NCBI GenBank assembly: GCA_965246985.1
Contig: OZ251998.1
Coordinates: 6,505,657 to 6,569,656 of the forward strand
Direction of reading: 5' to 3'
Length of the DNA: 64,000 bases
Origin: Candidatus Poribacteria bacterium
GTDB lineage: Bacteria; Poribacteria; WGA-4E; WGA-3G
Shown here piece by piece: positions 6,861 through 37,923 of this stretch (positions within the stretch are counted from its first letter, which is position 1; every line of letters begins with the position of its first letter). Below the pieces are notes generated by a model. That model did not search any database, had not been told where the DNA came from, and saw only the letters and a list, made by a program, of their open reading frames with translations. The position numbers were made by a program, and so were the translations under genes.

Positions 6861-6984
6861 AAATATTATTATACCTTATTCTGACTTTTAATGCAAATAT
6901 TTCGGTATATTCAACACCAGGGTCATTTAGTTTTAAACAAATTCTCGGATTGTCTAAATTTTTGGATCCTCTTTTTCAAGCTCG

Positions 6985-13878: not shown

Positions 13879-13888
13879 GAGGTGACCT

Positions 13889-21590: not shown

Positions 21591-22808
21591 ATGGATGATA
21601 CCCCGAAAAAAATATTAATGTTCAATCACGAATTTCCACCGATCGGTGGCGGTGGCGGCTGGGTCAGCTACTTTTTAGGCAAACACTTCGCGGCGGCAGG
21701 ACACGATGTGCACCTGATTACTTCGCAATTTCGCGATTGCCCGAAAGACGAGAAGGTGGAAGGCTTTCACGTGCATCGCGTACGTGCACTTCGGAAAAAT
21801 CCTGATGTATGTGCCGTACACGAAATGCTGACTTACGCGGTAAGCTCAAGTCTCTATGGATTGCGGTTCGCTAAACAGTTTCAACCCGATATCGTCCAAG
21901 TCTTTTTCGGTATTCCTGCCGGTGGCGGCGCATATCTTCTGCAAAAACGTCGCAACGTGCCGTATGTCGTATTTCTGGGGGGACGGGACGTACCGAGCCG
22001 CAACCCGGATCCGCCGTATTATCGGTGGTTATATCTGCTCCTAAAACCGGCCATCCGAGCGATTTGGCGCAACGCGTCAGTCGTTGTCGCTTGCAGCGAA
22101 GGCTTACGCGAACTTGCACAGGAAACGGATACGGATGTGAAAATGGATGTGATTCCTGACGGTTTAGACTTAGCGCGTTTTAAGCCGAGGTCCCCACCCG
22201 TTACTGCGGAGCGGGAACAACGCAATGCCTGTCCAAAAAAAGTCCAGATTCTCACAATCGGGCGGCTCATTCCACGCAAAGGGTTCCAATTTCTAATTCG
22301 CGCGCTGCCTCAGATTATTGAAAAAGCAGCACACAACTTTGAAATTGAAATTGTCGGCGATGGACCCTATCACGGAGAACTCCTGAAATTGGCGGAAAAA
22401 CTCGGCGTAGCCGTACACATCCACTTTGCGGGTTCAGTACCGTATTCGGAATTGCCACAAAAATACCAAGATGCGGATATCTTCATTTTACCCTCACTCG
22501 CGGAGGGGATGCCACTCGTCGTTTTAGAAGCGATGGGGACAGGACTCCCGATTGTTGCCAGCCGCGTTCAAGGCATTGATGAACTTGTCGTAGATGGCGT
22601 TAACGGCGCGCTGTTCGATCCGGGAGATGTTGACGGGCTTGCGAGCTCTCTTATCAAACTAATTAACGCCGGTGAAGGCCGCGTTGAGATGGGCAAGGCG
22701 AGCATTGAACGTGTTGAACCGTACGATTGGAAAAACATAGCCGACGCTTATTTAGCCCTCTATGCTGATATTCTGTCTAAAGGAGAAAATACACATGCTC
22801 CCAACTAA
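21591..22808 (+). CDS. family 4 glycosyltransferase (GT-B)
   Basis: …FPPIGGGGGWV… at the N-terminus. A C-terminal …EGMPLVVLEAMGTGLPIVASRV… E-x7-E-like motif typical of GT4. Confidence 0.8.
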   Translation: MDDTPKKILMFNHEFPPIGGGGGWVSYFLGKHFAAAGHDVHLITSQFRDCPKDEKVEGFHVHRVRALRKNPDVCAVHEMLTYAVSSSLYGLRFAKQFQPDIVQVFFGIPAGGGAYLLQKRRNVPYVVFLGGRDVPSRNPDPPYYRWLYLLLKPAIRAIWRNASVVVACSEGLRELAQETDTDVKMDVIPDGLDLARFKPRSPPVTAEREQRNACPKKVQILTIGRLIPRKGFQFLIRALPQIIEKAAHNFEIEIVGDGPYHGELLKLAEKLGVAVHIHFAGSVPYSELPQKYQDADIFILPSLAEGMPLVVLEAMGTGLPIVASRVQGIDELVVDGVNGALFDPGDVDGLASSLIKLINAGEGRVEMGKASIERVEPYDWKNIADAYLALYADILSKGENTHAPN

Positions 22809-24249
22809 AATTCTTGCTATCGGTGCGGGTGGTTTACAACGCGCCTTAACCCATGAATTTGTCCATATCCTCAACGAACGGAATCTCTATAACGGCGGTA
22901 TCTTCGTCGGACAGCCACGTGGCACTGAGAAAGCCGATGCCTTTAACCAACAAAACGGAATATATCATGTCGTCACGTTTGACCTAAGTGGTATCCACGA
23001 TATCCGACAGGTTTCGAGCGTTGTCGGTGCGACTACGCTCGCTACAGAAGCCGGTCGTGAGCAGTTCTATGCCCAAGCCGAAAATCCGCTTGACCTTATC
23101 CTTATCGGTGTAACCGAAGCTGGGATCGCTAAGGGTGAACTGGCGATGGATGTGCTGGATGAGACCCTCTACCGCTATTTTTGCCACCACGGTACAGACG
23201 CGACACTCTGTGTCATCAATACAGATAACCTCCGAAATAATGGCGATGTTATTCGCGATATTCTTTGCAACGAATATCCAAGACGGAGCGATGATTACGC
23301 GAAGTGGTTGGAGACAAATGTCGGCTTTCTTAACGAAATGGGCGACCGACTCGTACCACAAGTCTATGCCGTTCCTGATGAAATTCAGGCATCCGCACGC
23401 GCACAAATTGAGCATTCTGATGAATTAATAACATACGCGGAGACACTATCTGCAACACCGCTTATTCTGGAAGATTTAGACGACATGCTACGCGTCCCGT
23501 TCGGTGAACTTCAGGACTCCGGCGTTATTGTTAGTCAGGAGAGTATTGAATCGTATCACGACTGGAAACTCCTTTTGGTGAATTCTGTTCATGTACCGGG
23601 GATTACGCACAAAGGGGCACTCTCCGGCATCGAATATGTCAACGAAGCAGCGTCACACCCAACATTCGCACCACATCTGGAACGTCTGATGAACGGATAT
23701 GCCGAGATTGTAGAAGCGGACATCCCGATAACGGGTAAAAGTGCAAGAGAATACACACTGGAATTCGTTAATCGCATTCGTCGAGTCAAAGACGACAATG
23801 CTCGGATTAACATCATTGAAACCGTGAAACTCCGCGAACGTGCCGCTGATATCGTCCGCTCACCGAACTATAATGCCAGCACAGAGCTCTTCAAATCCGA
23901 TTTCGCCTATTCCTTCGCAACGGTGCTCCGATTTCTAACACCACACGCAATCTCGTCTCTTGATGACTACAAGAGTATCACCGATACCGGTACAGCGTAT
24001 GAAATCCGAGACCCTGACCGGACGATACAGGACATTCTGAGGGGGGCATTTGGCGCGAGCCGAACAGACCTGGAAGAACGGATTGAGACTATTTTCTCAA
24101 ATGCAGCACTGTGGTCTCCAGCTGGGGCAACATCACCAAGCGGTTTGAATAAGAACCAAGACTTTATGGAACGGATTGTCCAATATTATCATCGGTTGGT
24201 TAACGGAGAGACGTGTCTTGCGGTTTTGGAGGGTATCTCCACAAAGTAG
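22795..24249 (+). CDS. mannitol dehydrogenase-family oxidoreductase (UxaB/UxuB/MtlD-like)
   Basis: N-terminal Rossmann KILAIGAGGLQRALTHEF is consistent with the mannitol-dehydrogenase family. Start ATG at 22795, preceded by AAAGGAGAAAAT. Overlaps the glycosyltransferase stop by 14 nt. Exact substrate unknown. Confidence 0.5.
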   Translation: MLPTKILAIGAGGLQRALTHEFVHILNERNLYNGGIFVGQPRGTEKADAFNQQNGIYHVVTFDLSGIHDIRQVSSVVGATTLATEAGREQFYAQAENPLDLILIGVTEAGIAKGELAMDVLDETLYRYFCHHGTDATLCVINTDNLRNNGDVIRDILCNEYPRRSDDYAKWLETNVGFLNEMGDRLVPQVYAVPDEIQASARAQIEHSDELITYAETLSATPLILEDLDDMLRVPFGELQDSGVIVSQESIESYHDWKLLLVNSVHVPGITHKGALSGIEYVNEAASHPTFAPHLERLMNGYAEIVEADIPITGKSAREYTLEFVNRIRRVKDDNARINIIETVKLRERAADIVRSPNYNASTELFKSDFAYSFATVLRFLTPHAISSLDDYKSITDTGTAYEIRDPDRTIQDILRGAFGASRTDLEERIETIFSNAALWSPAGATSPSGLNKNQDFMERIVQYYHRLVNGETCLAVLEGISTK

Positions 24250-25492
24250 AAGGGGAAGGATGGCGGTATGTGTTATCAGAATCACAGAAAGCGCGGTGGG
24301 TGACATCCATGCAGCACGTATTGCCGGGTAAACACCAAAAATGACCCCCATGAAAATAGAAAAGATGACAGATATAACCTATACTCCGCACTTCTAATTT
24401 CGGATTTTTGGTATTTATTTTTTAAACCCACGTGGTTCCAACGTTCAACAAGCAATTTCAGGTGAATCAGAGAAGATATACGTGCGAAATGAAATCTTAT
24501 TTACCATCTCTAAATTTTATTATACTGTTTGGATCCTTTCGTGACGTGGGTTTGTCTAAAAATACCAAAATGTGTCAAAACAAGTGCGGAGTGTAGGATA
24601 TAAGTATCCACTGCACGGATAATACCACAGGTCACTCCTCCACAATCGGAACAATACGAACTGCGATGCGTGCCATGCCGTGGGCGAAGAGCCAGCCCCC
24701 GGCAATACCGAGTCTGTGTCTTTTGCGGAGTACCTCCTTGGCAGAGTTAATGACAGTATAGACATCTGTGCCTTTTTGAAAAAAGACGATGAGTCTTTCA
24801 ACATAACGTTCTGAAGATATACGCTGTTGACGTGTTGTCAATGGAACAAAAATGATGTCATCCATTGACATGCCACGGCTGAGGCTTTCGCCTCTGGGCA
24901 CCATGATACCAACCACGCGGCACCTAACCCACCTTCTGCGCCTGAGGCGGATTTTCACCTCTTGTCCAAGTGGCGGAGTATTTCTGAATAACTCTGTAGC
25001 GGCGTTGACACTAAGGACACAAACCTGCTTTGCGTTGTCAACATCGTCTTCAGAAAGGAATCGCCCGTGTTGCACTTCCCATCCCATAATGTGGGCGTAG
25101 TCTGCTGTCACACCTTCAATAGTCGAACGTATTTGGACACCTTGGTTAGATGTAACCCATCTCGGATACTTTCGATTTTGTGGCAAGACATAGAGCACAT
25201 CGGGGCATTCTGCTTCAATGGCACGTGCATCAGCGAGAGAGTATCGCTCGGTTGTCCGCTTCTTCGGCTTTCCCCGTGGATACGTATAAGGGCGGACCCA
25301 GAATCGCACGTGGTTGGGGCCGCCAAGTTTTTCAATGTCGTCGGCTATAATTTTTTGGGTGCCGTCGCCAATGGCCATCATGCAGAGAACACTCGCGACC
25401 CCAATAAGGATACCGAGGATGGATAATCCAGAGCGGAGTCGGTTTTGCTGAAGGTGCGCAATGCCAGAGGTTATCGCATCATAGCACTTCAT
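24250..25492 (-). pseudogene. FtsX/MacB-type ABC permease, cassette copy 1, disrupted by an in-frame deletion and a MITE insertion
   Basis: The N-terminal 255 aa are nearly identical to the intact paralog at 36660-37922. Then an in-frame 258-bp deletion joins …RKRHR to LGIAGGW…. The extreme C-terminus (…GVIFGVYPAIRAAWMSP) lies at about 24290-24350, separated from the body by a 230-bp MITE. Confidence 0.65.
24372..24602. mobile_element. MITE with about 60-bp terminal inverted repeats inserted in permease copy 1
   Basis: Left end is atataacctatactccgcacttctaatttcggatttttggtatttattttttaaacccacgtggt. Right end in reverse complement is atatcctacactccgcacttgttttgacacattttggtatttttagacaaacccacgtcac. 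The interior is AT-rich and non-coding. Confidence 0.6.
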
Positions 25493-27551
25493 GGTATAAA
25501 TAAGGTTTCATGTCCCAAAGCAGAACGGTACCATCATAACTACCACTTGCCAGAAGTTCGCCATCCGGTGTAAAAGCTAAATCCTGTACATCCGTTGTAT
25601 GTCCCCAGAAAGTGTGTATATTTTCACCCGTTGCGACCTCCCATATCCTTATGGACACTCTGTCCACCCCCCTTATCCACCACGCCCCAGAGACGAGGTA
25701 TTTTCCGCAGGGTGAAAATGTAAGCGCAAACGGTTTGCGACAGGTTTCAGGTAGCAGGATAAGCATGCGCGTTTCCAAGGTTGTTGCATCCCGCAACCGA
25801 ATATGATCATATATCCCACAAGCGATTGTCGTGCCACAGGGCGAGAAAGCGAGTTTGTAAGGGTTACACTTATAGCGTCTCCCTATTTTTCTATTTTTTT
25901 CGATATATTGGTGTATCTGATCTGGATCCCCTCTATAGAGGGACCTATCTTCTGGTAGTTCTGTAGGGAACAATCCGATCTGTTCACCACTGACTATATC
26001 CCAGAGTCTTACTGTGCGATCTTTGGCGACGGTTGCGAGGTGTTTACCGCTTGGATGGAAAGCGACTGTTAGAATATAATTTGTATGTCCTGTAAGCATA
26101 TTGACTTTCTTCCCAGACTGTGTGTCCCATACACCAATGTCTCCTGTACCGCCTGTAGGTGCTGTACCAATGAGATGTTCACTCGTAGGTGAAAAACACA
26201 TTGCAGCGTCAAATCCTTTACTGTCTGAGAGTTTTATAATGAGGGTTTCAGACGCAATATCCCAGATTTCAATTGAACCCCTCGGAAGTTTGCAAAGTGC
26301 CAGTCGTTCTCCACAAGTAGACAATGTGCTGACTCGGAATAACTGCTGTCTTTCTTCCGTTGTGAGATTTTTAGTTTGAGTCGTGTATTGTGCCTGCATC
26401 CGCTGCGTTGGGAAAACCTGTTCTGTTTGTCTCTGTGCCACATTCCAGCATACGAGCTGCGCACCAAACATTTCCCGACTTGTTAATGTCTTACCGTTTG
26501 TAAAAAAAGCAACTGAATGTACAACAGGTTGATGATCAGCGGCATTTGAAACTTTCGTTGACAGTGGCCCGACTGTCCATACACAGAGCTCGCTATGCGA
26601 CAGGATGGTCGCGATGTGTGCTCCATCGGTTGAAAAGTGATCATGCCTGCGGTTCTGACATTCAAAGGTATCTATTTTCTCTTTTCGGATAGCATCCCAA
26701 ATCACAACTTGATGATCGTAAATATCGGCAACGCGCAGTGTGCTATCAGGTGTATAGGCAGGGATTAACCTTCTCCCATCATAAATCGTGGGTTCCGTTT
26801 CCAAAGTGCCGTTGTAAACATTCCACACCAACACCTCAGTATTCTGATTGACAGCAGCAAGATATTGCCCACAAGGCGAAAAGATGAGACTACGGTACGC
26901 CAAGGGTGCTGAGCAGTGAAGGTCCGCAATGTGTTCACTTGTTTCTATATCGGAAATCGTGAGCGTGTGACGCGGGGTTCCAGCGGACACATATCCGAGT
27001 AAGTTCCCTATCGGAGAGAAACAAATTGGAAAGTGGTGTCCCCTCTCTTCTTCTGCTACGTCAATCGGAAAGTTTGTGATGGGTGCGTTCGTGTCTTTTT
27101 GCCAAGCGTAGACAACATTTTGCTTGTCAAAACAAGAGGCAGCTAAGTATTGGTTGTCTTGAGAAAAGCAGAGCTGCGAAAAACATCCTAACATTGCTTT
27201 TACATTCTTGCGATGGTCTATCTTTGCGAGGCACTGCAGACTTTGTGTATCCCATACCTTCACAACACCATCAAGATTGCTAGTGACAATCAACTGCGTG
27301 TCGTGTGAAAAGGCAATGGTATTAAGCATCCCGCGTTCTGTTTCAAATAAGGCAAGCGGTTTCAACGACAACCTATCATATAACCAACAGCCGATCGGCG
27401 TTGCTACAGCCAGATATTTACCATCAACCGAAAAGGACATATCCGACACGCGCCCCCTTGCTAATCTGCCGATCGCACCTTCAGGCAGGTGCCAGGTTGT
27501 CACATCCGTATCAACAGCACTTCGCATCAAATTAGACTTTTCTGATTGCAA
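25479..27551 (-). CDS. cytoplasmic WD40 beta-propeller protein, cassette copy 1 (690 aa)
   Basis: No signal peptide. N-terminal W-x-LPEGA-x-GRLARG module, then at least 12 WD repeats, ending …ASGSYDGTVLLWDMKPYLYHEVL. The stop overlaps the start of the permease. Confidence 0.8.
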   Translation of the reverse strand: MQSEKSNLMRSAVDTDVTTWHLPEGAIGRLARGRVSDMSFSVDGKYLAVATPIGCWLYDRLSLKPLALFETERGMLNTIAFSHDTQLIVTSNLDGVVKVWDTQSLQCLAKIDHRKNVKAMLGCFSQLCFSQDNQYLAASCFDKQNVVYAWQKDTNAPITNFPIDVAEEERGHHFPICFSPIGNLLGYVSAGTPRHTLTISDIETSEHIADLHCSAPLAYRSLIFSPCGQYLAAVNQNTEVLVWNVYNGTLETEPTIYDGRRLIPAYTPDSTLRVADIYDHQVVIWDAIRKEKIDTFECQNRRHDHFSTDGAHIATILSHSELCVWTVGPLSTKVSNAADHQPVVHSVAFFTNGKTLTSREMFGAQLVCWNVAQRQTEQVFPTQRMQAQYTTQTKNLTTEERQQLFRVSTLSTCGERLALCKLPRGSIEIWDIASETLIIKLSDSKGFDAAMCFSPTSEHLIGTAPTGGTGDIGVWDTQSGKKVNMLTGHTNYILTVAFHPSGKHLATVAKDRTVRLWDIVSGEQIGLFPTELPEDRSLYRGDPDQIHQYIEKNRKIGRRYKCNPYKLAFSPCGTTIACGIYDHIRLRDATTLETRMLILLPETCRKPFALTFSPCGKYLVSGAWWIRGVDRVSIRIWEVATGENIHTFWGHTTDVQDLAFTPDGELLASGSYDGTVLLWDMKPYLYHEVL

Positions 27552-27832
27552 AAAAATAGACCTCTAAGGATTGTGTGCACAGTAGGGTTGTAATTTGGGT
27601 TGTCTGAAACGTGCAGCACACATCGTAGTTTGCTCACACATTGTAGTTTGCTCACACATTTCAGACAATCCAGACATAAACATTTTGTGTTTAAAACAGT
27701 ATGATAACCTCTGATGAACCAAATGTTTCTACATTTCATCTAGGTTATTTGGTGCACTATCGGTTGTGACAATTGCCTTGACTATCAGCACCGTCACAAG
27801 TTACTGAACCATCGGGTACATTATTATTACAA

Positions 27833-28136
27833 TAGACATTATAATGGTTTAATTGTGTGTTTGTTCATCCATTTTTTTGGTAAAATCGCGGAGACCTACT
27901 CCTAAACGACAACCGTTAGGAGACCTCTCTTTGATAAAGGTTCTACGCGTCGCGCGAACTTTTAGTTTCCGCGGTATACGCCACAAACTAAAAGTTTGTG
28001 CTACAAGGTACGTCTTTGATAGACGAGAGACGAGAAACCTTTAGGGCGGACGAGAAGTCTCAACTGAACTGACGTTTATACCGATACCCCTAAAAGTTAA
28101 TTTACACAACATGTTCTTAAATCGTTATAACGTCTA
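27833..28136. mobile_element. MITE (family with TAGACATTATAA terminal inverted repeats) flanked by two degraded copies of the Cys-rich gene
   Basis: Ends are tagacattataatggtttaattgtgt… and …gttcttaaatcgttataacgtcta. The about-45-bp ends match the 35228-35419 element and the interior differs. One side (27752-27829, minus strand) reads …YCNNNVPDGSVTCDGADSQGNCHNR*, a Cys-rich tail fused directly to the 5' leader. The other side abuts the stop codon of copy B. Confidence 0.5.
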
Positions 28137-28529
28137 ATATGTATCACCTTTCTCATGACAAGGATTTTCAGTTCCTGTACCACAGCTGCTATCACTACAA
28201 CCACTGCCACAGCTATATGAGCCAGTCGAATTGTTACAGTTAGAATCTGCGACACAATCACAAGACGCGTCTGTTTGATCATCATTGTCTAAGCAGCTGC
28301 AACTATAAAAGTTAGATACTTGATCGGTGCTGCCACAACAGCCGCCTGTAGTTGCAGCGACTAAAGTTGCATCGCCGCCACCACAGCATCCTTTCGCTGC
28401 TTCAGACTCTGAGGTGTCCCAACTGCCTGTCAGGAAGAAAATACAACTACCAATTAAATCATACCAGCGGATGTTGTTTTTGTCAATTTTTTTAAGAGAA
28501 ATTAAAGTGTTTTCTTCGGAAACTTTACA
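28134..28529 (-). pseudogene. Cys/Gly-rich small secreted protein, cassette copy 1, lacking a start codon and part of the signal sequence
   Basis: Frame open from an upstream TGA: …KKIDKNNIRWYDLIGSCIFFLTGSWDTSESEAAKGCCGGGDATLVAATTGGCCGSTDQVSNFYSCSCLDNDDQTDASCDCVADSNCNNSTGSYSCGSGCSDSSCGTGTENPCHEKGDTY*. It has no in-frame ATG/GTG/TTG. Compare the intact paralogs at 34769-35227 and 40133-40621. Confidence 0.5.
28458..28486 (-). promoter_or_regulatory. near-consensus sigma-70-type promoter (TTGACA-17-TATGAT)
   Basis: The minus strand reads TTGACAaaaacaacatccgctggTATGAT. It lies within a block that recurs at 36240-36305. Confidence 0.4.
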
Positions 28530-28658
28530 TCATTGAGGCGCAAGGAGCCGGGAGAGCAAGTTTGGTGTAAGGGTTGGGTGACCCAACCCCTACGAGATCA
28601 GAAACTTCATCAAATCGCGCCTAAAAGAAGTAGGTATGGCGCAAAGAACGTAAGTCCG

Positions 28659-29003
28659 CTAATCCACTAAAGAGATAACCCCTTTCTTGCGTTGGAGTAC
28701 GGCATCGTAGAACCGCATCGTGCCAACGCAGTCTTGGATACTTGATACCGGTTCCCGGTTCTCACGAATGGCGTTAACAAACTCGGTGAGACTGATGCCG
28801 TCGCCGGTCAGTTCGCCGTTGCGTTCATCAGAGAAATTAGAGGTAAAGGTATTACCAGATTCGGTGAAATGCTGAGCACCCCACAACCCATCTAAAACAA
28901 TGTATTCGTGTTGTCCAGTAATTTCGATGTAATCGTAGTTACGCCGCCACAACCGTTGGCTGCTGAGTTGCCTGCTGTAATGCCAAGCAATGTTAGCCCC
29001 CAT
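28659..29003 (-). pseudogene. ectopic duplicated 3' fragment of the Gfo/Idh/MocA oxidoreductase gene (43256-43560)
   Basis: The 114-aa ORF is nearly identical to the last roughly 100 aa of the 43256-44203 protein (…SQRLWQRNYDYIEITGQHEYIVLDGLWGAQHFTESGNTF…LQRKKGVISL). The downstream hairpin gtaagggttgggtgacccaacccctac is copied too (28567-28595 vs 43222-43250). A solo IS630-like end (cttcatcaaatcgcgcc, 28602-28618) abuts it. Confidence 0.7.
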
Positions 29004-29872
29004 GCCAGCTTTCGTGCATAGCGGCGTAAGTGTTCTACGTAGGTCAGTAGCAGATATCTTATGCCACGCAATATAAGGACCATCAACGGTGGAAAAAGCA
29101 TAATCGCAGCAAGATGTGTATTAGAGCTGTATCCGCTTCGGTAGGCGGGGCTTATGAAATAGAGCCAGGGAACAAACATAAGCGTCCAGAGAACATACTC
29201 TATGAGACGATTTTCTGTGTCTGTGGTGCAAAACTTCCAAAGTTCTAAGGCAATTATAATGATGAGGAAGAAACCAAACCCTTCCCAACTCATTCCGCCA
29301 AGGAAAACAGTGGCACCGCAGAGCGCGGTTGTTATCCATCTCCGCCATCCCAGCTCCATACGCTCTTTCCAAAGGTAACTTATCACCGCAAGAATACCGA
29401 ACATCCAGCACCACGCGTCTCTGTCGCCGAAACCAACGGAACTACGCTCAATACTCCCCGGTAAAGTCGCAAGGAGTAGGATAATAGTAGCAGTGAAGTA
29501 GAATCCAAAGACACGGGCAAGAAATAGACAAAGCACACCGAGCCCGACAATGAAACAGATAGTAGGAAGATAAATTTGAATATGGTACAGTGTCAGTTCT
29601 GGAAAGATCCACCCGATGGACTTATGGATATAAGCAATACCATAAGCATAGAGATACAAACGTTGTCCATTTTCTCTACCTTCCGGCAACCAACGGCGCA
29701 TATCGCGTGCTGGAAGAACATTTTGCTCAGCGATCTCTTGTGCTTGTAGGGCGTAGAGATAGGCATCATTAGACGTAAACTGATTGTCAGGTAATCTTCC
29801 GACATCTTGAACGCGGATCCAGCAGGCAAGCAGCAGAATCGCACAGAGAAGAATTTTTTGATAGAACTTCAT
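29004..29872 (-). pseudogene. GT-C-fold membrane glycosyltransferase-like protein (ArnT/PMT/STT3-like), 3'-truncated by the inserted fragment
   Basis: N-terminal TM helix, then …TSNDAYLYALQ… (DxD-like) and many TM helices. The ORF-track ORF (28892-29872) reads out of frame into the duplicated oxidoreductase fragment, so the C-terminal half of the gene is missing. Confidence 0.4.
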
Positions 29873-29878
29873 AGTGTA

Positions 29879-31239
29879 TTACAAACGGAAGGCATATTGC
29901 CAACCGAGGGTGAGACTCCATACGTTTTTGAGTTGTGTCCCTGTAAGATTCTGATAAATAGGCAGAGTGAACTCAACTGCAATCCGCTGTCCTGCCAACG
30001 ATTTTCCTGCTGGCACCATCAGGTTGCTTGAAATAGCAACGTCAAGCCGAGTGCCGCCACGAAAATCAGGTCGATGGCTCGGACTCATGTTTGTATTTAA
30101 ATCGGGATGGCTACCGGTAATATGTCCACTGTGCGAAAATAGAAACCGTCCGCCGAGACTGAGCCAATCGCTGAGCTTTCGCGCGCCCCATGCAGTAGCG
30201 TTGACAGAATTCCCGTGTTGGTATTCACCGCTATTAGTATGCAGAGGAAACGTTCCGCGTAATTGACTACCATAAGACCAATTCCCGTAATACCCGAAAA
30301 GCGTTATGCCTGATCGTCCTTCAACGGAACCACTCCCAAGTTGCATCGGATAGGGTAAGATGTTTCCATCCAGCCCAGTCTGTTCAATAGAACCCGTCGG
30401 CAATGACATACCGATGTTTCCAATGAAATTGAGGTGGTCTGTTTTCCACAATGTGAGTAGAGACTCTAATTTGACATCGCCAAGTCCTGAACTTGTCATT
30501 TCGTGCGTGCCCACGGGATGCGCGTGATGACCTGTTGCGTGGTCGTGTGAACCTTCCATCTCCATGTAGCGTTGCTGATAGTTTCCTTGTTTTCGTCCAA
30601 GCATATGGGGATCCAGTTGATCAATGAAAGGCTATCAATCCCAGTCCATATCTGCTTTCAAGAGGGGTTAAAAGGTCTCAAATCACAACACCCTACCTTT
30701 GAAACCCTTATCATAACTGGGCATCAACTTTTTCAAGGCCTCTTTGGTGCCGGAAAAGCGATAAAAATCGTGGTTTTGGTTTCCTTTTTCTCTCAAAGGT
30801 GTGTAGAAGTTGTTTGCCACCTTTTGAGGTGTTGTTTTCTCAATGTGTGTGTAGGTTTGTGCGTGATTAGAGCAAGTATGGTTTCCTACACTTATTGGAC
30901 AAAAACAAGGTAGTTTGCCATTACCATGAGCGTGATTTTGTCGTGTGGTGCGAACATAACCCCGAAACTATGCATTTTCATGTCCATCTGTGTCGGCACC
31001 GTCATAAAATCTTTTAGCACGTCAGCAGTCTCAAGAGCTGTAGTGCCGGATTGTAGTCCCCGCATATCCATTGCCATGAATCTGTAGGATAGCATCCATT
31101 CGCGAGTTTTATGTGCATGTTCACCCATGACACCGATAGGCGCGTGACTATCGGGACGCGAACTTGGGGAATCTGCATAAGCAGCGTTGAGAGTCAGTAA
31201 AAGTAGCAAAACAGTTAAAACATTTATGTGTGATTTCAA
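29879..31239 (-). pseudogene. outer-membrane beta-barrel protein, split into two ORFs by about 290 bp of unreadable sequence
   Basis: The N-terminal piece (30892-31239) has a signal peptide plus …HAPIGVMGEHAHKTREWMLSYRFMAMDM…. The C-terminal piece (29879-30604) has alternating amphipathic beta-strands ending …WQYAFRL, an aromatic-x-aromatic C-terminus. The 30605-30891 gap has no continuous frame. Confidence 0.45.
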
Positions 31240-31302
31240 TCACTTCTCCTTATGAATGGTTATCGGTTATGAGAAAAAATGCTTCACCGATAACTATTTG
31301 TG

Positions 31303-32570
31303 TTATGTATCCGTTCGGAGGGCATCGATAGGGGCCATCTGCGATGCTCGGATAGCAGGATAGACACCAAAAATGATACCCATGAAGATTGAAAAGAGGA
31401 CAGAAATCACCATCCATCGCACAGACAGCACCACCGGCCACACCTCTACAATGGGTAGGATACGGACAGCAACGCGTGCCATACCGTGGGCGAAGAGCCA
31501 GCCACCAGCGATACCGAGCAGTGAACCACAAAAACAGAGGCTCATAGATTCGGTTAGAATTGATAGAAGATATCGATGCATCTTGCGCCGACGGCTTTTC
31601 GCAAACCGATCTCGCGCGTCTTCTCACCGACGGAGACAAGGCAGATATTCATAATCCCGATGCCACTGACAAGCAACGAGAAACCCGCAATGCCACCCAA
31701 GGCAATCTTTATCATTTTTTCAATGCGTTCAAGTTGTTTGACAGTTCGTTTGGGAATCCAATCATATACAAAGTTATCGGTACCCCGGTGTCTTTTACTA
31801 ATCACCTTCCGGGCGGATTTTACCACATCGGAAGCGTCTACGTCTTTTTGAAAAAAGATAATAAGCCTTTCAACATAGCGGATGCCCGTAATACGTTGTT
31901 GATACGTTGTTATCGGAACGCATATCATATCATCTAAACTCCCCCAGGTAATACTGAGGTTCCTCCCTTTCGGTGCCATGGTACCGACAACGCGCATCCG
32001 AACGGGTGTTTGCCGCCAATGATTCCGAAGTTTTATCTCTTGACCGATGGGGGAGACATTTCCGAACAACTCTTCAACTACGTTTGCACCCAAGACGCAG
32101 ACCTGTGTGGCGTTGTCTATATCGTTCTCGGAGAGAAATCTACCCGCTTGCAACTCGTACCGCAAGAGTTCGGCATAGTCTGCTGTTACGCCTTCCAGAT
32201 CAGCACCTCTGAATTGCCCGCCCAGGGGGCTGGTGACAAATGTATTATTTCTCCGATTCCGAGGTAGGACCCCTGTGACCTCCGGGCATTCTGCCTCAAT
32301 CGCAGGAGCGTCCTCCAAAGTATATCGCTCCGTTGTTGGATATCGTCGGCCGCGTCTCCAGCCAGATGTGTGTGTCCAGAATTGGATTTGATTTGCCCCC
32401 CCGATTTTTTCGATGTCATCGGCGATGATCTGTTTCGCGCCATCCCCGATGGCCATCATACAAAGGACACTTGCAATGCCAATGAAGATGCCGAGGATGG
32501 ATAATCCGGCACGGCTTTTATTTTCTTGGATATGCTTGATACCTGCAGCAATTGCCTCATGGAATTTCAT
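31303..32570 (-). pseudogene. FtsX/MacB-type ABC permease, cassette copy 3, split by a 1-nt deletion (frameshift)
   Basis: ORFs 31554-32570 and 31303-31581 overlap by 28 nt in different frames. Alignment to copy 2 shows caatttttgacagaatctat in copy 2 against caattctaaccgaatctat here, one base shorter. Confidence 0.65.
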
Positions 32571-32595
32571 GCGGCTCCACCCAATCTATGTTGGA

Positions 32596-34590
32596 TTAAG
32601 AACCCATCACGGATTTCAGGTCCCAGAGGAGGATGGTGCTGTCAAAACTCCCACTCGCTAAGAGGGTGCCGTCGGGTGAAAACGCGAGATCTTGGACATC
32701 GGTCGGGTGTCCCCAGAAGGTGGCGATGTTTTCGCCGGTGGCAACTTCCCACAAGCGAATAGGCACCTTTTCTGTTTCCACGGCCCTATTCCACCACGCG
32801 CCAGAAGCAAGATATTGCCCACAAGGTGAAAACGCCAAGGCACGCGGATTTCCATTGGTAGGTGCATGAGGAAGAGTCAAAAGAGTTCGACAATTATTGA
32901 CATCCCACAATCGGATTTCCGTTGCCATGCCACAAGCGATCTTATGACCGCAAGGTGAAAACGCGACAGTATAGACACGGTTGACACGGAACTCCGGATT
33001 TTCTTTCCCCGTATCGATGTCCCATAGATTTGCCATCGTGCCAGAAGAACTCGGAACACTTACAAGGTGTTTACCGTCGTGGCTGAATATAAGGCGGCTG
33101 ATACGATTATGATCATCATCCCAATTCCCTTCTAAGGGGAGAGTGTGTGTGAGCACACAGCGCACGTCACCACTTCTCATATCCCATACATACAGATGCC
33201 CTTTGCTATCCCCGCACGCGATGAGATGTCGTAGCGGGGCGTGTGCTGCGGCAGTCACCACTGCCTCTGGGTCGGGAAGTGTAAATGTCATAGGTGTCGT
33301 GTTTTCGTCGGCTTCCCCTATTTTAACGGTTATTTTAACAGTATTTTCATCATACGCAAATGCTGTCGAGTGAATTTTCTCTGAAGTGGACACAGAAACG
33401 GCTCGTGGGTCACCGGATATTTTGAAAAAAGTGGGCGGTTGCATGGGGTTGGCAATATCCCATAATAGCGTGCTTCCATACCTTACAAACCCGGCTGCCA
33501 CCTTTTTGCCATCTTGTGAGAACGCTACGGAATTCGGAAAACCGACATGTAAATGCGGCACCTTGCGGGGTTTGGTATCCCCGGGTGACCAGACTGCCCA
33601 TTCCTTTCCCCCAGCAACGACAAAATGCGAACTGCTTGAAAAAAGTGCTTTATCAATCTCCCATTCCTTTTCAACGTACGTGTAGCGTTTTTCATGACGT
33701 TCCACGTCCCACACGACGACAGTGTTTCTTTCCAGAGCATTTTCCAGAGTCTGAAGAACGCCTTCCTGTGAATAGCAGACGCTCATGCGAGAGGTGCCAT
33801 CATAGTTCTGATATACTCGCTGCTGTTCCCAAGTATTCACATTCCATACGTGCACTGTGCCTTTATCGCTGCCGATGGCCAGAGTTTGTCCACAAGGTGA
33901 AAAGCAGAGGCTGCGCACAAAGCTCGGTTGTTCGGTAAGACAGGCGATGCGCTCACCGGTTACGACATCCCACACCAAAACAACATCGGGGCCATCCGTT
34001 GTCCCGGCGGGAGCCGTACACGCCAGCAGGCGACTGTCTGGCGAAAAAGCAACGGGTCGAGGGAGGGAGGGGTAAGAACTGCGTGTTTCTCTTTGGGGGT
34101 CATGGAACGTAGCCAGCGGTGTGCCGGTTCTGGGGTCCCAGGTGTAGACAATCTCACAACGGCTACCTGTTGCGGCCAGGTGCTGGTTATCAGGTGAAAA
34201 GGCAAGAGACTTAATTGCAGTCGTCCTAGGGACTGGCTTTTTTAACCCTGGCCGCACAATTTTTGTAATGCAGGTGCTCCGCTGGATATCCCACACTTTG
34301 ATAACACCATCCCAGTTGCCGGTCGCAGCCAATCGCCCATCAAGAGAAATAGTAATGGCACCCAGCATTCCTCGTTCTGTTTCCCATAGAGCAACAGGTT
34401 GCATTGTCGCGAGTTCATACCACCAGAGCCCAATTTTGGTTGCGGCTGCGAGGTATGCTCCATCCGGCGATACTGCCATCGCCATCACAGTTCCACGCCC
34501 GAACCGAGAAATCGCACCATCCGGTAAAGCCCAGCTCATTGGATGACCTTTATCAGCGACAATGGGCGTGGACCCTGTTTTTTCTGACAT
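32596..34590 (-). CDS. cytoplasmic WD40 beta-propeller protein, cassette copy 2 (664 aa)
   Basis: AGGAGG sits 8 nt upstream of the ATG. N-terminal W-x-LPDGA-x-SRFGRG module, WD repeats, and a C-terminal …ASGSFDSTILLWDLKSVMGS. Confidence 0.8.
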   Translation of the reverse strand: MSEKTGSTPIVADKGHPMSWALPDGAISRFGRGTVMAMAVSPDGAYLAAATKIGLWWYELATMQPVALWETERGMLGAITISLDGRLAATGNWDGVIKVWDIQRSTCITKIVRPGLKKPVPRTTAIKSLAFSPDNQHLAATGSRCEIVYTWDPRTGTPLATFHDPQRETRSSYPSLPRPVAFSPDSRLLACTAPAGTTDGPDVVLVWDVVTGERIACLTEQPSFVRSLCFSPCGQTLAIGSDKGTVHVWNVNTWEQQRVYQNYDGTSRMSVCYSQEGVLQTLENALERNTVVVWDVERHEKRYTYVEKEWEIDKALFSSSSHFVVAGGKEWAVWSPGDTKPRKVPHLHVGFPNSVAFSQDGKKVAAGFVRYGSTLLWDIANPMQPPTFFKISGDPRAVSVSTSEKIHSTAFAYDENTVKITVKIGEADENTTPMTFTLPDPEAVVTAAAHAPLRHLIACGDSKGHLYVWDMRSGDVRCVLTHTLPLEGNWDDDHNRISRLIFSHDGKHLVSVPSSSGTMANLWDIDTGKENPEFRVNRVYTVAFSPCGHKIACGMATEIRLWDVNNCRTLLTLPHAPTNGNPRALAFSPCGQYLASGAWWNRAVETEKVPIRLWEVATGENIATFWGHPTDVQDLAFSPDGTLLASGSFDSTILLWDLKSVMGS

Positions 34591-34768
34591 TTCTTATGTT
34601 CCTCCTAAAAACTATCCGTTCTAATACCATTAGGGTTTCCCGCTACGTTCTGAATCCTAAAATGGTGTATATCATCACGTAGCCGAAAACCCTCATATTT
34701 TAGTATGACCTACGACAGACATGCACATCTGCAAGGGAGAATGAGGCTCCGGAGATCCATGCTGTTTT

Positions 34769-35227
34769 TCAGCAGTTCGAAGTACAAACGCTGCTGCTGG
34801 TATCATTTGGACACCGTTCCCCATCACATTCACACTCATTTTTGCTAGGAGAACAACTACTCCCCCCACAAACAGTATTCTCAGCACCTGAGCACGTGCC
34901 ATTATCACAGCTGGAACCACAAGATGTCCCAGCCTCAGAGAGACAAGTACATGCACTGTTGCTGCTTGAGGGGATAACTTTACCTTCGCCGCCGCAGCAT
35001 CCACCGGTGACTTCGGCATCCATTGGGATGTCACTGCCGAAATCCCCGCCGTTGTTCGCTGCAAAGGAAGTCAATGCTGCCCCGCCACCACCACAGCATC
35101 CTTTCGCTTCTTCAGCCTCTGAGGCATCCCAACTGCCTGTCAGCAAGAAAATACAGCCACCTACAAACAGCAAGGTGATCATTAAGTTACCGATAGTGTT
35201 CCGGTGGGTTTTCAACATTTTACTCAT
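34769..35227 (-). CDS. small Cys/Gly-rich secreted or membrane-anchored protein, cassette copy 2
   Basis: MSKMLKTHRNTIGNLMITLLFVGGCIFLLTGSWDAS is a signal/anchor segment. It is followed by the conserved GCCGGGGA…TGGCCGG motif pair and then a tail with about 20 Cys that differs from its paralogs. Confidence 0.6.
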   Translation of the reverse strand: MSKMLKTHRNTIGNLMITLLFVGGCIFLLTGSWDASEAEEAKGCCGGGGAALTSFAANNGGDFGSDIPMDAEVTGGCCGGEGKVIPSSSNSACTCLSEAGTSCGSSCDNGTCSGAENTVCGGSSCSPSKNECECDGERCPNDTSSSVCTSNC

Positions 35228-35419
35228 TAGACATTATAATGGTTTAATTGTGTACTTTTGTTCATCTATTTTTTCGCTATCCTACAAACACATTTTTCCT
35301 TAAAATGGCAAAAATGTGGGCAAACTCGTAAACGGCAATCGTTAAAAGACGACAACGTGAAATATACATCTACTAAAAGTTAATTTGATCAACAAGTTCT
35401 TAAATCGTTATAATGTCTA
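35228..35419. mobile_element. MITE (TAGACATTATAA inverted-repeat family) inserted between the RBS and ATG of the copy-2 Cys-rich gene
   Basis: Ends are tagacattataatggtttaattgtgtacttttgttcatc… and …caacaagttcttaaatcgttataatgtcta. The copy-3 paralog has GGGAAAGGAAAGaaaaATG contiguous. Here 192 bp separate GGGAAAGGAAAG from the ATG. Confidence 0.55.
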
Positions 35420-35479
35420 TTATTCTTTCCTTTCCCATATAGGGGTTGTAAAATACAAAAAGTTATACAAAGTTTTAAC

Positions 35480-35679
35480 TCAAAAACATAAAACACTTTA
35501 CCTTGTCACAACGCCTATTGCAAGGAGACAAGGCGCAAATGCATCGAAAGAACTCCCGATGCAACAAAACGATAACAAGAGACACCACAACCCCAACAAC
35601 GAGCAGAAACAAAACCGGTAGCCATTCTTTGAGTCGTTTAGATTTCTGTGAGTCGTTTAGATTTCTGTGAAATTATCAT
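35480..35679 (-). pseudogene. small single-pass membrane ORF in the cassette leader (copy 2), disrupted by a 19-bp tandem duplication
   Basis: GGAGGcgttATG begins MIISQKSKRL…. The repeat gagtcgtttagatttctgt occurs twice in tandem at 35631-35649 and 35650-35668, which brings in a stop after 13 codons. With one copy removed, the frame reads MIISQKSKRLKEWLPVLFLLVVGVVVSLVIVLL…, matching 40835-41017. Confidence 0.4.
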
Positions 35680-36134
35680 AACGCCTCCAATTTATGACGC
35701 TAAGAGGAGGGAGGTATTAGGATACACCATTCGCCTGTTATTGTCAAACAAAAAAGTCGCACGCCGCGGTAGCCGACACTGCGGCACCGGGCACTGCAAC
35801 ACCAAAAGCCCGCGATGCGCGTCTCCATGCAAGACGAAGGCGGCGCGCGGGCGCGAAGAAGATACAACCGTTAGAACGATTACATCTACTTTGTAAAGTA
35901 AATGAAGTAAAATACTTAATGTAAGTAAAGCGCGCGGGGTAAACTTCGTTATGTGAACCGAGTGCACAAGCGATGCTGACAGACATAGGGTACGCTCAGG
36001 CAAACTGTGCCTAAGACAAGCACTATGTAGCGTTGTTGTCCCAATGTGTCGGTTCTTCATCCTCAAGTTTCCTATGTGAAATGCAAGTGTGAAAATAGCG
36101 GTGGCATCATTTTTCGGTTCCACCACCCTACCTA

Positions 36135-36163
36135 TTTGTTGATAATTATATCACAGATCGCGA
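36135..36163 (-). promoter_or_regulatory. consensus sigma-70-type promoter (TTGACA-17-TATAAT)
   Basis: The minus strand reads TTGACAttgttcgcgatctgtgaTATAAT. It points toward cassette copy 2. Confidence 0.45.
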
Positions 36164-36216
36164 ACAATGTCAAATTTTTTCCTAAAAAGTTACAAAATCC
36201 TTAGAAAAACACACCA

Positions 36217-36245
36217 TTTTCACTCAATTATACACGCGGAGCCAA
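36217..36245 (-). promoter_or_regulatory. second consensus sigma-70-type promoter (TTGACA-17-TATAAT), 82 nt upstream of the first
   Basis: The minus strand reads TTGACAaaaattggctccgcgtgTATAAT. It sits in the block that is repeated at 28466-28525. Confidence 0.45.
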
Positions 36246-36529
36246 TTTTTGTCAATTTTTTTAAGAAAAATCAAAAAATTGTTTTCTTCGGAAACTTTAC
36301 ATCATTTCTAATATCATCTATCATCGGTTTATCATCGGTTTCGCCGAGGTACGGGAGTTGGGTGAACAATGTTTGGTGTAGGGGTCGGGGCCCCCCAACC
36401 CCATAGGTGTAAATTTAAGAAAAAAGTTATGCGCTAAGGCCCTCCGGACCGGTAGGTGCGGTTTTGCGGCGTACCATAGGTGTAAATTTAAGGGAAAGTC
36501 TGTGTATTTTTAGTGATTAAAAAAGTGTT

Positions 36530-36605
36530 GCGAAATAGAAACACCTCTTGCCTAATGTAGAAAAAGGATTCAAGTGATTCTACAAAAGAGGTGTTTCCAA
36601 TGTCC
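36530..36605 (-). terminator. rho-independent terminator-like hairpin downstream of permease copy 2 (end of cassette 3)
   Basis: A 13-bp perfect stem, ggaaacacctctt…aagaggtgtttcc, is followed on the minus strand by cacuuuuuuaa. Confidence 0.45.
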
Positions 36606-36659
36606 ATTTTACAACAAGTCAGTGATAAAATGCAAACGATTCTTAGGCCTCTTTTTGTG

Positions 36660-37922
36660 TTATGTATCCGTTCGGAGGGCATCAATCGGAGACATCCGCG
36701 ATGCTCGGATAGCAGGATAGACACCAAAAATGATACCCATGAAGATTGAAAAGAGGACAGAAATCACCATCCATCGCATAGATAGTACCACCGGCCACAC
36801 ATCCACAATCGGCAAGATGCGGACAGCAACGTGTGCCATGCCGTGGGCGAAGAGCCAGCCCCCGGCAATACCGAGAAGGGTACCACAGAGACAGAGGCAG
36901 ATAGATTCTGTCAAAAATTGATAGAAAATGTCGATTCGCTTTGCACCGACAGATTTACGTAGACCTATTTCTCGCGTCTTTTCACCAGCGGAAATGAGAC
37001 ACATATTCATAATACTGATGCCGCTCACAAAGAGCGAGAACCCAGCGATGCCACCCAGTGCGATTTTTATCACTTCTTCAATGCGTTCCAGCATCCTGAT
37101 TTTGCCTGTAGGTCTCCAGTAACCAATAAAATCCGTGACACCTCTGTGTCTTTTGCGGAGTACCTCCTTGACGGAGTTAATGACAGTATAGACATCTGTA
37201 CCTTTTTGAAAAAAGACGATGAGTCTTTCAACATAGCGTTCTGAAGATATACGCTGTTGACGTGTTGTCAATGGAACAAAAATGATGTCATCCATTGACA
37301 TGCCACGGCTGAGGCTTTCGCCTCTGGGCACCATGATACCAACCACGCGGCACCTAACCCACCTTCTGCGCCTGAGGCGGATTTTCACCTCTTGTCCAAG
37401 TGGCGGGGTATTCCTGAATAACTCTGTAGCGGCGTTGACACCAAGGACACAAACCTGCTTTGCGTTGTCAACATCGTCTTCAGAAAGGAATCGCCCGTGT
37501 TGTACGCCCCATCCCATAATGTGGGCGTAGTCTGCTGTCACACCTTCAATAGTCGAACGTATTTGGACACCTTGGTCAGATGTAACCCATCTCGGATACT
37601 TTCGATTTTGTGGCAAGACATAGAGCACATCGGGACATTCTGCTTCAATGGCACGTGCATCAGCGAGAGCGTATCGCTCGATTGTCCGCTTCTTCGGCTT
37701 TCCCCGTGGATACGTATAAGGGCGGACCCAGAATCGCACGTGGTTGGGGCCGCCAAGTTTTTCTATGTCGTCGGCTATAATTTTTTGGGTGCCGTCGCCG
37801 ATGGCTATCATGCAAAGAACACTCGCGACCCCAATAAGGATACCGAGGATGGATAATCCAGAGCGGAGGCGGTTTTGCTGAAGGTGCGCAATGCCAGAGG
37901 TTATCGCATCATAGAACTTCAT
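36660..37922 (-). CDS. FtsX/MacB-type ABC transporter permease, cassette copy 3, the only intact copy (420 aa)
   Basis: N-terminal TM1 (…RSGLSILGILIGVASVL…), a periplasmic MacB-like domain of about 200 aa, and C-terminal three-TM FtsX domain ending …GIIFGVYPAIRASRMSPIDALRTDT. No ATPase gene nearby. Confidence 0.85.
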   Translation of the reverse strand: MKFYDAITSGIAHLQQNRLRSGLSILGILIGVASVLCMIAIGDGTQKIIADDIEKLGGPNHVRFWVRPYTYPRGKPKKRTIERYALADARAIEAECPDVLYVLPQNRKYPRWVTSDQGVQIRSTIEGVTADYAHIMGWGVQHGRFLSEDDVDNAKQVCVLGVNAATELFRNTPPLGQEVKIRLRRRRWVRCRVVGIMVPRGESLSRGMSMDDIIFVPLTTRQQRISSERYVERLIVFFQKGTDVYTVINSVKEVLRKRHRGVTDFIGYWRPTGKIRMLERIEEVIKIALGGIAGFSLFVSGISIMNMCLISAGEKTREIGLRKSVGAKRIDIFYQFLTESICLCLCGTLLGIAGGWLFAHGMAHVAVRILPIVDVWPVVLSMRWMVISVLFSIFMGIIFGVYPAIRASRMSPIDALRTDT

Positions 37923-37923
37923 G

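Follow-up and report, generated by a model that had tools for sequence, protein, structure and literature searches.

Gene content between gfo and the mannitol-dehydrogenase gene

The stretch of DNA analysed here, 64,000 nucleotides (nt) of the Candidatus Poribacteria contig OZ251998.1 (hereafter the window), contains three cassettes, A, B and C, arranged head to tail, each comprising genes for a small cysteine-rich (Cys-rich) protein, a WD40 protein and a MacB/FtsX-type permease. The cassettes lie between a Gfo/Idh/MocA oxidoreductase gene (gfo) and a mannitol-dehydrogenase gene. The data consisted of the letters of the window and 18 related loci (L001 to L018), all of them from assemblies only. 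Coordinates are window positions throughout, and all genes of the cassette region are on the minus strand and are listed 5' to 3' on that strand (Table 1).

Table 1. Coordinates of the three cassettes, their control regions and neighbouring genes (aa, amino acids; bp, base pairs; MITE, miniature inverted-repeat transposable element; ORF, open reading frame; UTR, untranslated region)
Feature	Position	Strand	Remarks
gfo, full copy	43256-44203	-	Intact; upstream of cassette A
Sigma-54-dependent activator, 440 aa	41502-42824	-	Intact; Pfam Sigma54_activat (5.5e-65), AAA_lid_14, HTH_8; no receiver domain
Sigma-54 (-24/-12) promoter-like site	41386-41401	-	TGGCATGATATTTGCT; one mismatch to TGGCAC-N5-TTGCW
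Cassette A, span	36660-41017	-	Only fully intact cassette; with sigma-54 promoter and activator up to 42824
Leader A, 60-aa single-pass membrane protein ORF	40835-41017	-	Intact; GGAGG Shine-Dalgarno sequence
Conserved non-coding leader-to-Cys block, A copy	40620-40787	-	97.6% identical to 35419-35586 (B copy)
Cys-rich protein A, 162-168 aa	40133-40639	-	Intact; N-terminal signal with lipobox-like LLFVGGC, then variable region with 17 Cys
WD40 protein A, 718 aa	37924-40080	-	Intact; Pfam WD40 and beta-propeller families
Permease A, 420 aa, MacB-type, no ATPase domain	36660-37922	-	Sole intact permease; MacB_PCD 1.2e-39, FtsX 3e-18
Cassette B, span	31303-36402	-	
Cassette B upstream region	35699-36402	-	Two perfect sigma-70 consensus promoters
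Leader B stub	35587-35679	-	19-bp tandem duplication and 156-bp deletion
Cys-rich protein B, 152 aa	34769-35227	-	ORF intact; separated from ribosome-binding site and 5' UTR
WD40 protein B, 664 aa	32596-34590	-	Intact
Permease B, split into 338-aa and 92-aa ORFs	31303-32570	-	1-nt deletion
His/Met-rich outer-membrane-like gene	29879-31239	-	Split by 326-bp MITE at 30585-30910; intact in L011 (342 aa)
STT3-like membrane protein, first 301 codons	28971-29872	-	Truncated at illegitimate junction; 800 aa in L011
Cassette C, span	24250-28970	-	
Duplicated 3' fragment of gfo	28659-28970	-	85% identical to 43256-43555; opens cassette C unit
Cys-rich gene C, broken	27760-28486	-	Body 28141-28457; displaced 24-codon tail 27760-27834
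WD40 protein C, 690 aa	25479-27551	-	Intact
Permease C, broken	24250-25492	-	267-bp in-frame deletion, nonsense codon, MITE, diverged 3' remnant 24250-24377
Mannitol-dehydrogenase gene	22762-24249	opposite	Past cassette C

The canonical arrangement is represented by L011, a single operon in which an activator gene is followed by the leader, Cys-rich, WD40 and permease genes, the outer-membrane gene, the STT3-like gene and two family 2 glycosyltransferase (GT2) genes. According to this order, and to the single nucleotide that separates the WD40 stop codon from the permease start codon, the permease is the final gene of a cassette. The preliminary description of this DNA, made from the letters alone, had let each cassette begin with the permease and had thereby misplaced the boundaries. 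Its statement that only one of the three cassettes is intact is correct in that one cassette keeps all of its ORFs, but most of that cassette lies outside the interval 24250-37922 to which the statement was attached, as the leader, Cys-rich and WD40 genes of cassette A occupy positions 37924-41017, past the end coordinate 37922.

Only cassette A retains a sigma-54 promoter, an activator and all four ORFs, while all three WD40 ORFs survive; the WD40 A orthologue in L014 is likewise 718 aa long. Within the window, the sigma-54 activator was found only before cassette A. Its translation contains GAFTGA and is 88% identical to that in L001 and 81% identical to that in L011, and its N-terminal 116 aa matched no family. 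Homology with L001 starts at the -24/-12 site, and leader A has copies 75-92% identical in L001, L009, L011 and L016. No sigma-54 site with two or fewer mismatches was found before the Cys-rich gene or before cassettes B and C, and the combination of a GAFTGA-bearing enhancer-binding protein with a -24/-12 promoter is present at cassette A only. Upstream of cassette B are instead two tandem sigma-70 promoters (36227-36255 and 36145-36173, minus strand), each of the form TTGACA-17-TATAAT and matching the consensus at 12 of 12 positions. This upstream region is 92% identical to the sequence downstream of gfo in L013, L017 and L018, which have no sigma-54 activator and carry the sigma-70 promoter region in its place. 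As predicted from these elements, cassette regulation is modular, with a sigma-54 activator and promoter in some alleles and two perfect sigma-70 promoters in others.

The leader-to-Cys block (168 nt) is 92-99% identical to its counterparts in other strains, a conservation above that of the flanking coding DNA, and contains the palindrome TGCATCG-N10-CGATGCA. The block had no Rfam match, and Rfam was blank over 24000-43500, the one chance-level match falling elsewhere in the stretch. With no Rfam match and an unremarkable folding energy (z = -1.9), an RNA element in this block was considered and dropped as unsupported.

Lesions in cassettes B and C

Comparison with intact orthologues in sister Poribacteria genomes was run for the disabling lesions listed in the preliminary description. 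The lesions are distinct and real, and most of them are derived relative to those orthologues; the earlier list was for the most part correct, but contained a number of wrong details and a mistaken reading in terms of duplication. Both the lesions and their polarity can be read directly from the alignments, and the expected consequence of such changes would be loss of function.

The permease of cassette C has been damaged several times. Relative to permease A, 267 bp (89 codons) are gone in frame, so that ...AAAAGACACAGA is followed directly by CTCGGTATT... at junction 24712/24713. The in-frame deletion at RKRHR/LGIAGGW that had been noticed in this copy (copy 1; 24632-25492) is as clean as described, with a length of 267 bp rather than 258 bp. 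It takes out residues 262-350, partly inside the FtsX domain (Pfam: residues 292-412), and is derived, since the orthologues in L016 and L017 keep the segment. The ORF ends at a previously unlisted TGG>TGA nonsense codon (24632-24634), 35 nt before a MITE; permease A and L014 have TGG at this position. That MITE, previously held to split off the C-terminus, is indeed present in the 3' part of the gene, but the ORF has already ended upstream at the TGA.

In the Cys-rich gene of the same cassette, the first ~24 codons have been replaced by promoter-bearing DNA homologous to the cassette B upstream region, which places a TTGACA-17-TATGAT promoter (28458-28486; 11 of 12 consensus matches) against the gene body. 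The start codon and signal peptide are lost, and there is no in-frame ATG, GTG or TTG, in agreement with the original observation that this copy lacks a start. Between the displaced Cys-rich tail and WD40 C, an 18-bp tandem repeat (27617-27660; 2.4 copies) differs in copy number from that in L017.

Cassette B has been affected differently. Permease B, the third copy in the earlier numbering, was described as two ORFs produced by a 1-nt deletion, and this is what is seen against both its paralogue, permease A, and its true orthologue in L011: TTT has become TT at about 31558-31560, giving FYQF and a stop. The gene shares 92-94% aa identity with that of L011, relative to which this deletion is its only lesion. 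The two genes upstream also have orthologues in L011 (76% aa identity for Cys-rich B over its full length, 86% for WD40 B). Exact-product look-ups of the truncated permeases, covering the frameshift and 267-bp deletion alleles, found none, and a scan of Joint Genome Institute (JGI) metagenomes for either frameshift allele also found none.

Leader B contains an exact 19-bp tandem duplication, as reported before at 35631-35668 and placed here at 35633-35670 (Tandem Repeats Finder array 35625-35670), which introduces a stop after 13 codons of the 60-codon leader ORF. L013, L017 and L018 carry the very same duplication, and because it recurs in these three independent assemblies it represents a real allele and not a consensus error. 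In addition, a 156-bp deletion between imperfect 9-nt repeats (junction 35578-35586) has removed the C-terminal half of leader B and joined its N-terminal half to the conserved leader-to-Cys block. The ORF resulting from this fusion of leader stub and intergenic block is probably what was taken for a second Cys-rich copy of which only a 26-codon tail, fused to the leader, was left; this ORF does not represent a Cys-rich gene. Alternatively, that reading could have arisen from the 24 codons displaced from the 3' end of Cys-rich gene C.

Four MITE insertions of three families lie in the stacked region, all with terminal inverted repeats. The element in permease C (24378-24597, 220 bp) has 16-bp inverted ends CCTAtACTCCGCACTT (15/16) and the target duplication ATATAA, and the same insertion is found in strain L014, which comes from another sample. 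That in the outer-membrane-like gene (30585-30910, 326 bp) has the inverted ends CCTTGTTTTyGTCCAA (15/16) and the target duplication TAGTTT. The other two belong to one TA family, with ~20-bp repeats and TA target duplications: a 190-bp copy (35229-35418; inverted ends (TA)GACATTATAA...) separates the ATG of Cys-rich gene B from its ribosome-binding site, and a 301-bp copy (27835-28135), which is not in L017, cuts the last 24 codons off Cys-rich C. Empty sites are available for every insertion, in permease A and L016 (ATATAA), in L001, L009 and L011 (TAGTTT), in L017 (the TA in Cys-rich C) and in cassette A (the TA at Cys-rich B). None of these elements, which range from 190 to 326 bp, contains a transposase ORF; the TA family has two copies in the window, and the two other families are each single-copy within the window and the 18 loci. 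The earlier account of transposon insertions was incomplete, as those at 35229-35418, 27835-28135 and 30585-30910 had been missed.

An IS630-like transposase gene (7010-8206; DDE_3 and HTH domains) flanked by 40-bp inverted repeats (6984-7023 and 8207-8246) lies elsewhere in the window, and a MITE of ~110 bp with the ends of this element is found 38 kb away, at about 46023-46130. A relationship of the cassette MITEs to the IS630-like element was rejected, as the inverted ends differ. An IS1595-family element occupies nearly the same spot as the 190-bp MITE, before the Cys-rich start codon, in L013 (2836-3982) and L017 (8802-10000), and the site just upstream of this start codon may be an insertion hot spot.

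The two genes between cassettes B and C are also broken, which the preliminary description had not mentioned. A tblastn search with the L011 STT3-like protein covered residues 1-301 only, the remainder being absent from the window. The intact L011 orthologue itself matches TIGR04154 at 1.3e-13 (50 bits), under the curated cut-off of 450, and has no Pfam match. A GC-rich palindrome resembling repetitive extragenic palindromic (REP) sequences, GGGGTTGGGTCACCCAACCC, follows the gfo stop codon and is found at 28561-28593, 43212-43244 and about 36375-36400. It reappears where each stacked unit begins and at other places in related genomes, and its translation yields spurious "KGWVTQPL" ORFs.

Origin and decay of the stacked cassettes

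Every cassette of the window has its closest counterpart in a different strain. Cassette A, compared over 37923-40837, is 99.9% identical to L014, with 2 of 2916 sites differing; WD40 C is 99.8% identical to L017 (5 of 2073 sites); and cassette B matches L011 at 90% identity across 4.4 kb. For the flanking mannitol-dehydrogenase gene, identity is 98.1% with L014 and about 90% with L017. Near-identity of cassettes A and C to different strains, set against these flanks, suggests recent exchange between co-occurring strains. L014 and L015 have cassette A alone, without activator or leader and with a decayed permease, and L017 and L018 have an IS1595 element and cassette C alone, with an intact permease. 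Other arrangements are found at the remaining loci. L001 carries cassette A together with a second leader and Cys-rich gene and has only a 35-aa permease remnant left, L016 has its WD40 and permease genes in fragments, and the chromosome-level L009 has multiple cassettes and, before intact copies of the outer-membrane and STT3 genes, truncated fragments of both. L002-L004, which are parts of one 171-kb contig (CBDBEI010000008.1), contain at least 12 Cys-rich/WD40 pairs in tandem, with several WD40 types, without permease or leader genes and with the outer-membrane-like gene at the array end. As judged from these alignments, the gfo-to-mannitol-dehydrogenase interval is a strain-variable, recombination-prone island in Candidatus Poribacteria.

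We consider it probable that three divergent allelic cassettes were stacked by recombination within this island, and that the redundant copies then decayed quickly. Alleles A, B and C, each of them single in a sister strain, would have been brought together by unequal or illegitimate recombination, with the junction of STT3 codon 301 and the gfo 3' fragment at 28971 and B's own copy of the post-gfo region as the scars of stacking. Because unit B opens with its own post-gfo region and unit C opens inside the gfo 3' fragment, whole-locus alleles appear to have been stacked. The redundant cassettes B and C would then have been hit by four MITE transpositions, the loss of 1 nt from a run of three T residues, a nonsense substitution and the 267-bp and 156-bp deletions, and a further deletion would have fused the promoter into Cys-rich C. 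The slipped 19-bp tandem duplication would have been inherited along with the B-type upstream allele.

The preliminary description had explained the same region by recent duplication and rapid inactivation, that is, by the expansion of one cassette to three copies in this genome and the loss of two. The many lesions at very low background divergence would fit such an origin, as would the near-identity it reported for permease copies 1 and 2 (C and A), which are 97.6% identical over the first 780 bp and the 43 nt past the deletion. This near-identity holds over about 1 kb, however, and the 3' ends are only about 77% identical. The tract of high identity between A and C (96-99%) runs for ~1 kb from the permease start codon, and a near-identical tract of about 1 kb also links permease A with the permease of L017, a one-cassette strain. 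The WD40 genes, in contrast, share 59-68% nucleotide identity (WD40 A against WD40 C) and about 30-45% aa identity between cassettes, the Cys-rich C-terminal regions are 32-36% identical, and permease B shares 67% aa identity with permease A. As the WD40 genes are divergent and the tract is shared with L017, the permease tract is best explained by recombination or gene conversion between cassettes that are old and divergent. Every cassette is closer to an orthologue in another strain than to any paralogue here, and each is the sole cassette of a sister strain. Recent duplication within this genome is therefore very improbable. The second half of the earlier explanation fares better, as rapid inactivation holds for cassette C, which has acquired several large lesions against five differences from L017 in the WD40 gene.

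Several points weigh against stacking followed by decay of B and C. The frameshift, the 267-bp deletion and the junctions at 28971 and about 36400-36660 are seen in this assembly only, and cassette A is near-identical to one strain and cassette C to another, as they would be in a strain-chimeric contig. Cassette B may still work, given its intact Cys-rich and WD40 ORFs and the strong promoters upstream, and to speak of two dead cassettes may overstate the loss, as relatives hold long arrays of Cys-rich/WD40 pairs that have no permease.

The near-identity to two different strains bears on the possibility that the contig joins A-, B- and C-type alleles of co-occurring strains, so that the stack and some of the lesions exist in no one cell. 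The strains matching A and C, L014 and L017, differ in their flanking genes, the relatives are sponge metagenome assemblies under nearby European Nucleotide Archive (ENA) accessions, and the 1-kb permease tract could mislead an assembly graph. A misjoin induced by repeats would not produce the joins observed, however, because permease A stop and B upstream region, and STT3 codon 301 and gfo fragment, have no more than a few bases in common where they meet. Other genomes, including the chromosome-level L009, have similar outer-membrane/STT3 scars and multiple cassettes, and independent assemblies also contain the 19-bp duplication and the permease C MITE. On this evidence a strain-chimeric contig appears distinctly unlikely.

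The tempo of decay is best seen in cassette C. Compared with L017, it has lost the 5' end of the Cys-rich gene, gained a MITE in that gene, and acquired the 267-bp deletion, the nonsense codon and the MITE in the permease, over a period in which WD40 C changed at five of 2073 sites. Ratios of nonsynonymous to synonymous substitution rates (dN/dS) against L011 are 0.40-0.44 for the permease, 0.41 for WD40, 0.57 for the Cys-rich gene and 0.55 for the sigma-54 activator, and 0.16, 0.12 and 0.05 for the outer-membrane-like gene, the STT3-like gene and gfo, respectively. By these ratios, constraint on the cassette genes is weak or diversifying, also in intact copies. No other component is lost as often as the permease, both here and across other strains. 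In L015 (12685-14000) and L014 (13480-13670), permease pseudogenes contain many indels of 1-8 nt and few substitutions next to clean WD40 ORFs, a pattern that could be due to decay with a strong bias towards deletions, or else to local consensus problems in the two assemblies.

The locus also admits a reading as streamlining, in which the Cys-rich/WD40 pair alone is the functional unit, and the accessory permease, leader and sigma-54 module can be dispensed with. Sigma-70 promoters of their own would then keep cassette B and WD40 C in use, and the 19-bp duplication would be tolerated or regulatory. The arrays of at least 12 pairs in L002-L004 lack permease and leader, L014 and L015 lack activator and leader, L001 lacks a permease, and in L017 and L018 the 19-bp duplication stands beside intact Cys-rich, WD40 and permease ORFs; in the window itself, three of three WD40 ORFs are intact and the promoters before B are perfect. 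Against streamlining stand the MITE that parts Cys-rich gene B from its ribosome-binding site, a Cys-rich gene C with neither start nor signal peptide, and breakage of the outer-membrane and STT3-like genes, which show the strongest constraint at the locus (dN/dS 0.12-0.16). We regard streamlining as unlikely and return to stacking and decay of divergent alleles as the preferred account.

With at least five lesions against five point changes in its WD40 gene, cassette C offers a clean, datable example of decay. It also shows that, in a genome derived from a metagenome, what look like "paralogues" can be alleles of a strain pool stacked together. The more useful lead, in our opinion, is the locus itself, a recombination hot spot where a rare Cys-rich family invariably has WD40 proteins as partners.

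Protein families and comparison with known systems

The Cys-rich protein had 46 homologues among 5.8 billion clusters and 42 in a profile search of 1.84 billion representatives, and every locus that was fetched with an organism-naming title belonged to Candidatus Poribacteria. Full-length members share an invariant N-terminus of ~33 residues (...LLFVGGCIFLLTGSWD). A lipobox-like LLFVGGC at Cys25 was matched in 36 of 39 family members by a regular expression modelled on the PROSITE rule, and the hydrophobic stretch atypically runs on past the Cys. The mature part is acidic, rich in Gly, Asn, Asp, Ser and Thr, contains ~17 Cys and is very variable in sequence between cassettes; no N-x-S/T sequon was found in Cys-rich protein A. 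Searches of Pfam, NCBIfam and PADLOC returned nothing for the Cys-rich, leader and outer-membrane-like proteins and no toxin, immunity or defence domain beyond generic domains, and a profile search of the PDB with the Cys-rich family gave no match.

The permease matches PF12704 (1.2e-39) and PF02687 (3e-18) and aligns to residues 273-662 of MacB in 5LIL (8e-44). As its first residue corresponds to MacB residue 273, it has no fused ATPase. No HlyD-type adaptor family was found among the called neighbours in L001 and L014-L018 or the cassette ORFs scanned.

As a working guess held with low confidence, the Cys-rich protein may be a Sec-exported, possibly lipidated envelope protein, which the MacB/LolCE-like permease and the outer-membrane protein would release or export, using an ATPase provided in trans. 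Among related transporters, MacAB-TolC has enterotoxin STII, a small disulfide-rich peptide, as an export substrate, and lipoproteins are extracted by LolCDE; both roles fit a permease neighbouring a lipobox-bearing Cys-rich protein and an outer-membrane gene. Against this model stands the absence, in the window and the 18 related loci, of any ORF combining Walker A and LSGGQ as in an ABC ATPase. The model is further weakened because the AlphaFold2 prediction of the Cys-rich structure, made with a 39-sequence alignment, reached a predicted local distance difference test (pLDDT) score of 43.

Cys-rich and WD40 types co-vary (Mantel r = 0.79, p = 2e-4). This co-variation was rejected as evidence for physical interaction, since neighbouring genes are inherited together and this is enough to explain it. 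The cassette WD40 proteins are cytoplasmic and have a double propeller. Positions 12676-16021 and 49482-51434 of the window also code for WD40 proteins; the one at 49482-51434 carries a hydrophobic N-terminal segment resembling a signal peptide, which is missing from the cassette WD40s, and shares with them the opening motif W-x-[LV]-P-x-G-A-x-A-R-L-G-R-G. WD40 proteins belong to the "eukaryote-like" repeat classes long suspected in sponge-symbiont interaction (PMC3909097), and a full-text literature search returned only general accounts of their abundance in Poribacteria.

Only tentatively, and as an idea that we hold to be possible rather than likely, the Cys-rich/WD40 pair might constitute a previously undescribed, diversifying two-gene module restricted to Poribacteria and serving strain competition or sponge-symbiont recognition. 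Such a module would consist of an exported, possibly lipidated Cys-rich protein, with invariant targeting sequence and hypervariable mature domain, and a cognate double-propeller WD40 protein, with pairs amplified to arrays of a dozen or more and swapped between co-resident strains at about 100% identity. If this were true, the module would resemble polymorphic toxin/immunity or variable-surface systems, and the stacked and decaying cassettes would be the debris of its turnover. A locus with interchangeable sigma-54 and sigma-70 control would in any case offer a testable entry to the roles of some Poribacterial WD40 proteins.

The components of the locus resemble several known systems in part. 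In common with polymorphic toxin/immunity and conotoxin-like arrays, there is an invariant signal, a hypervariable Cys-rich part, a co-varying partner gene, tandem arrays and exchange between strains; unlike in polymorphic toxin/immunity systems, no toxin or immunity domain was detected, and the partner is a WD40 protein of 660-720 aa. As in the type VII permeases of the MacB/LolCE/FtsX group (5LIL, 5NIK), a MacB periplasmic core is combined with an FtsX transmembrane domain, whereas the gene described here has no fused or neighbouring ATPase and no membrane-fusion adaptor and is tightly coupled to a WD40 gene. The control region of cassette A is similar to PspF-like sigma-54 regulons in having an AAA+ protein with GAFTGA and HTH_8 and without a receiver, a -24/-12 promoter and small membrane proteins downstream. 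It differs from them in that there is no PspA-like partner and in that the module is missing in many strains, which use sigma-70 promoters.

Finally, the changes in cassettes B and C correspond to those known from pseudogene formation in host-associated bacteria, where insertions of MITEs and insertion sequences, loss of 1 nt from homopolymers, slipped duplication and deletions likewise occur, and where redundant copies decay as one remains intact. In contrast to the usual decay of redundant genes, the copies here are stacked divergent alleles and not fresh duplicates, and in cassette C decay has been very fast relative to point divergence, with at least four large lesions against five single-nucleotide polymorphisms in 2 kb. 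The phenomenon as a whole is ordinary gene decay in a recombination-prone accessory island.

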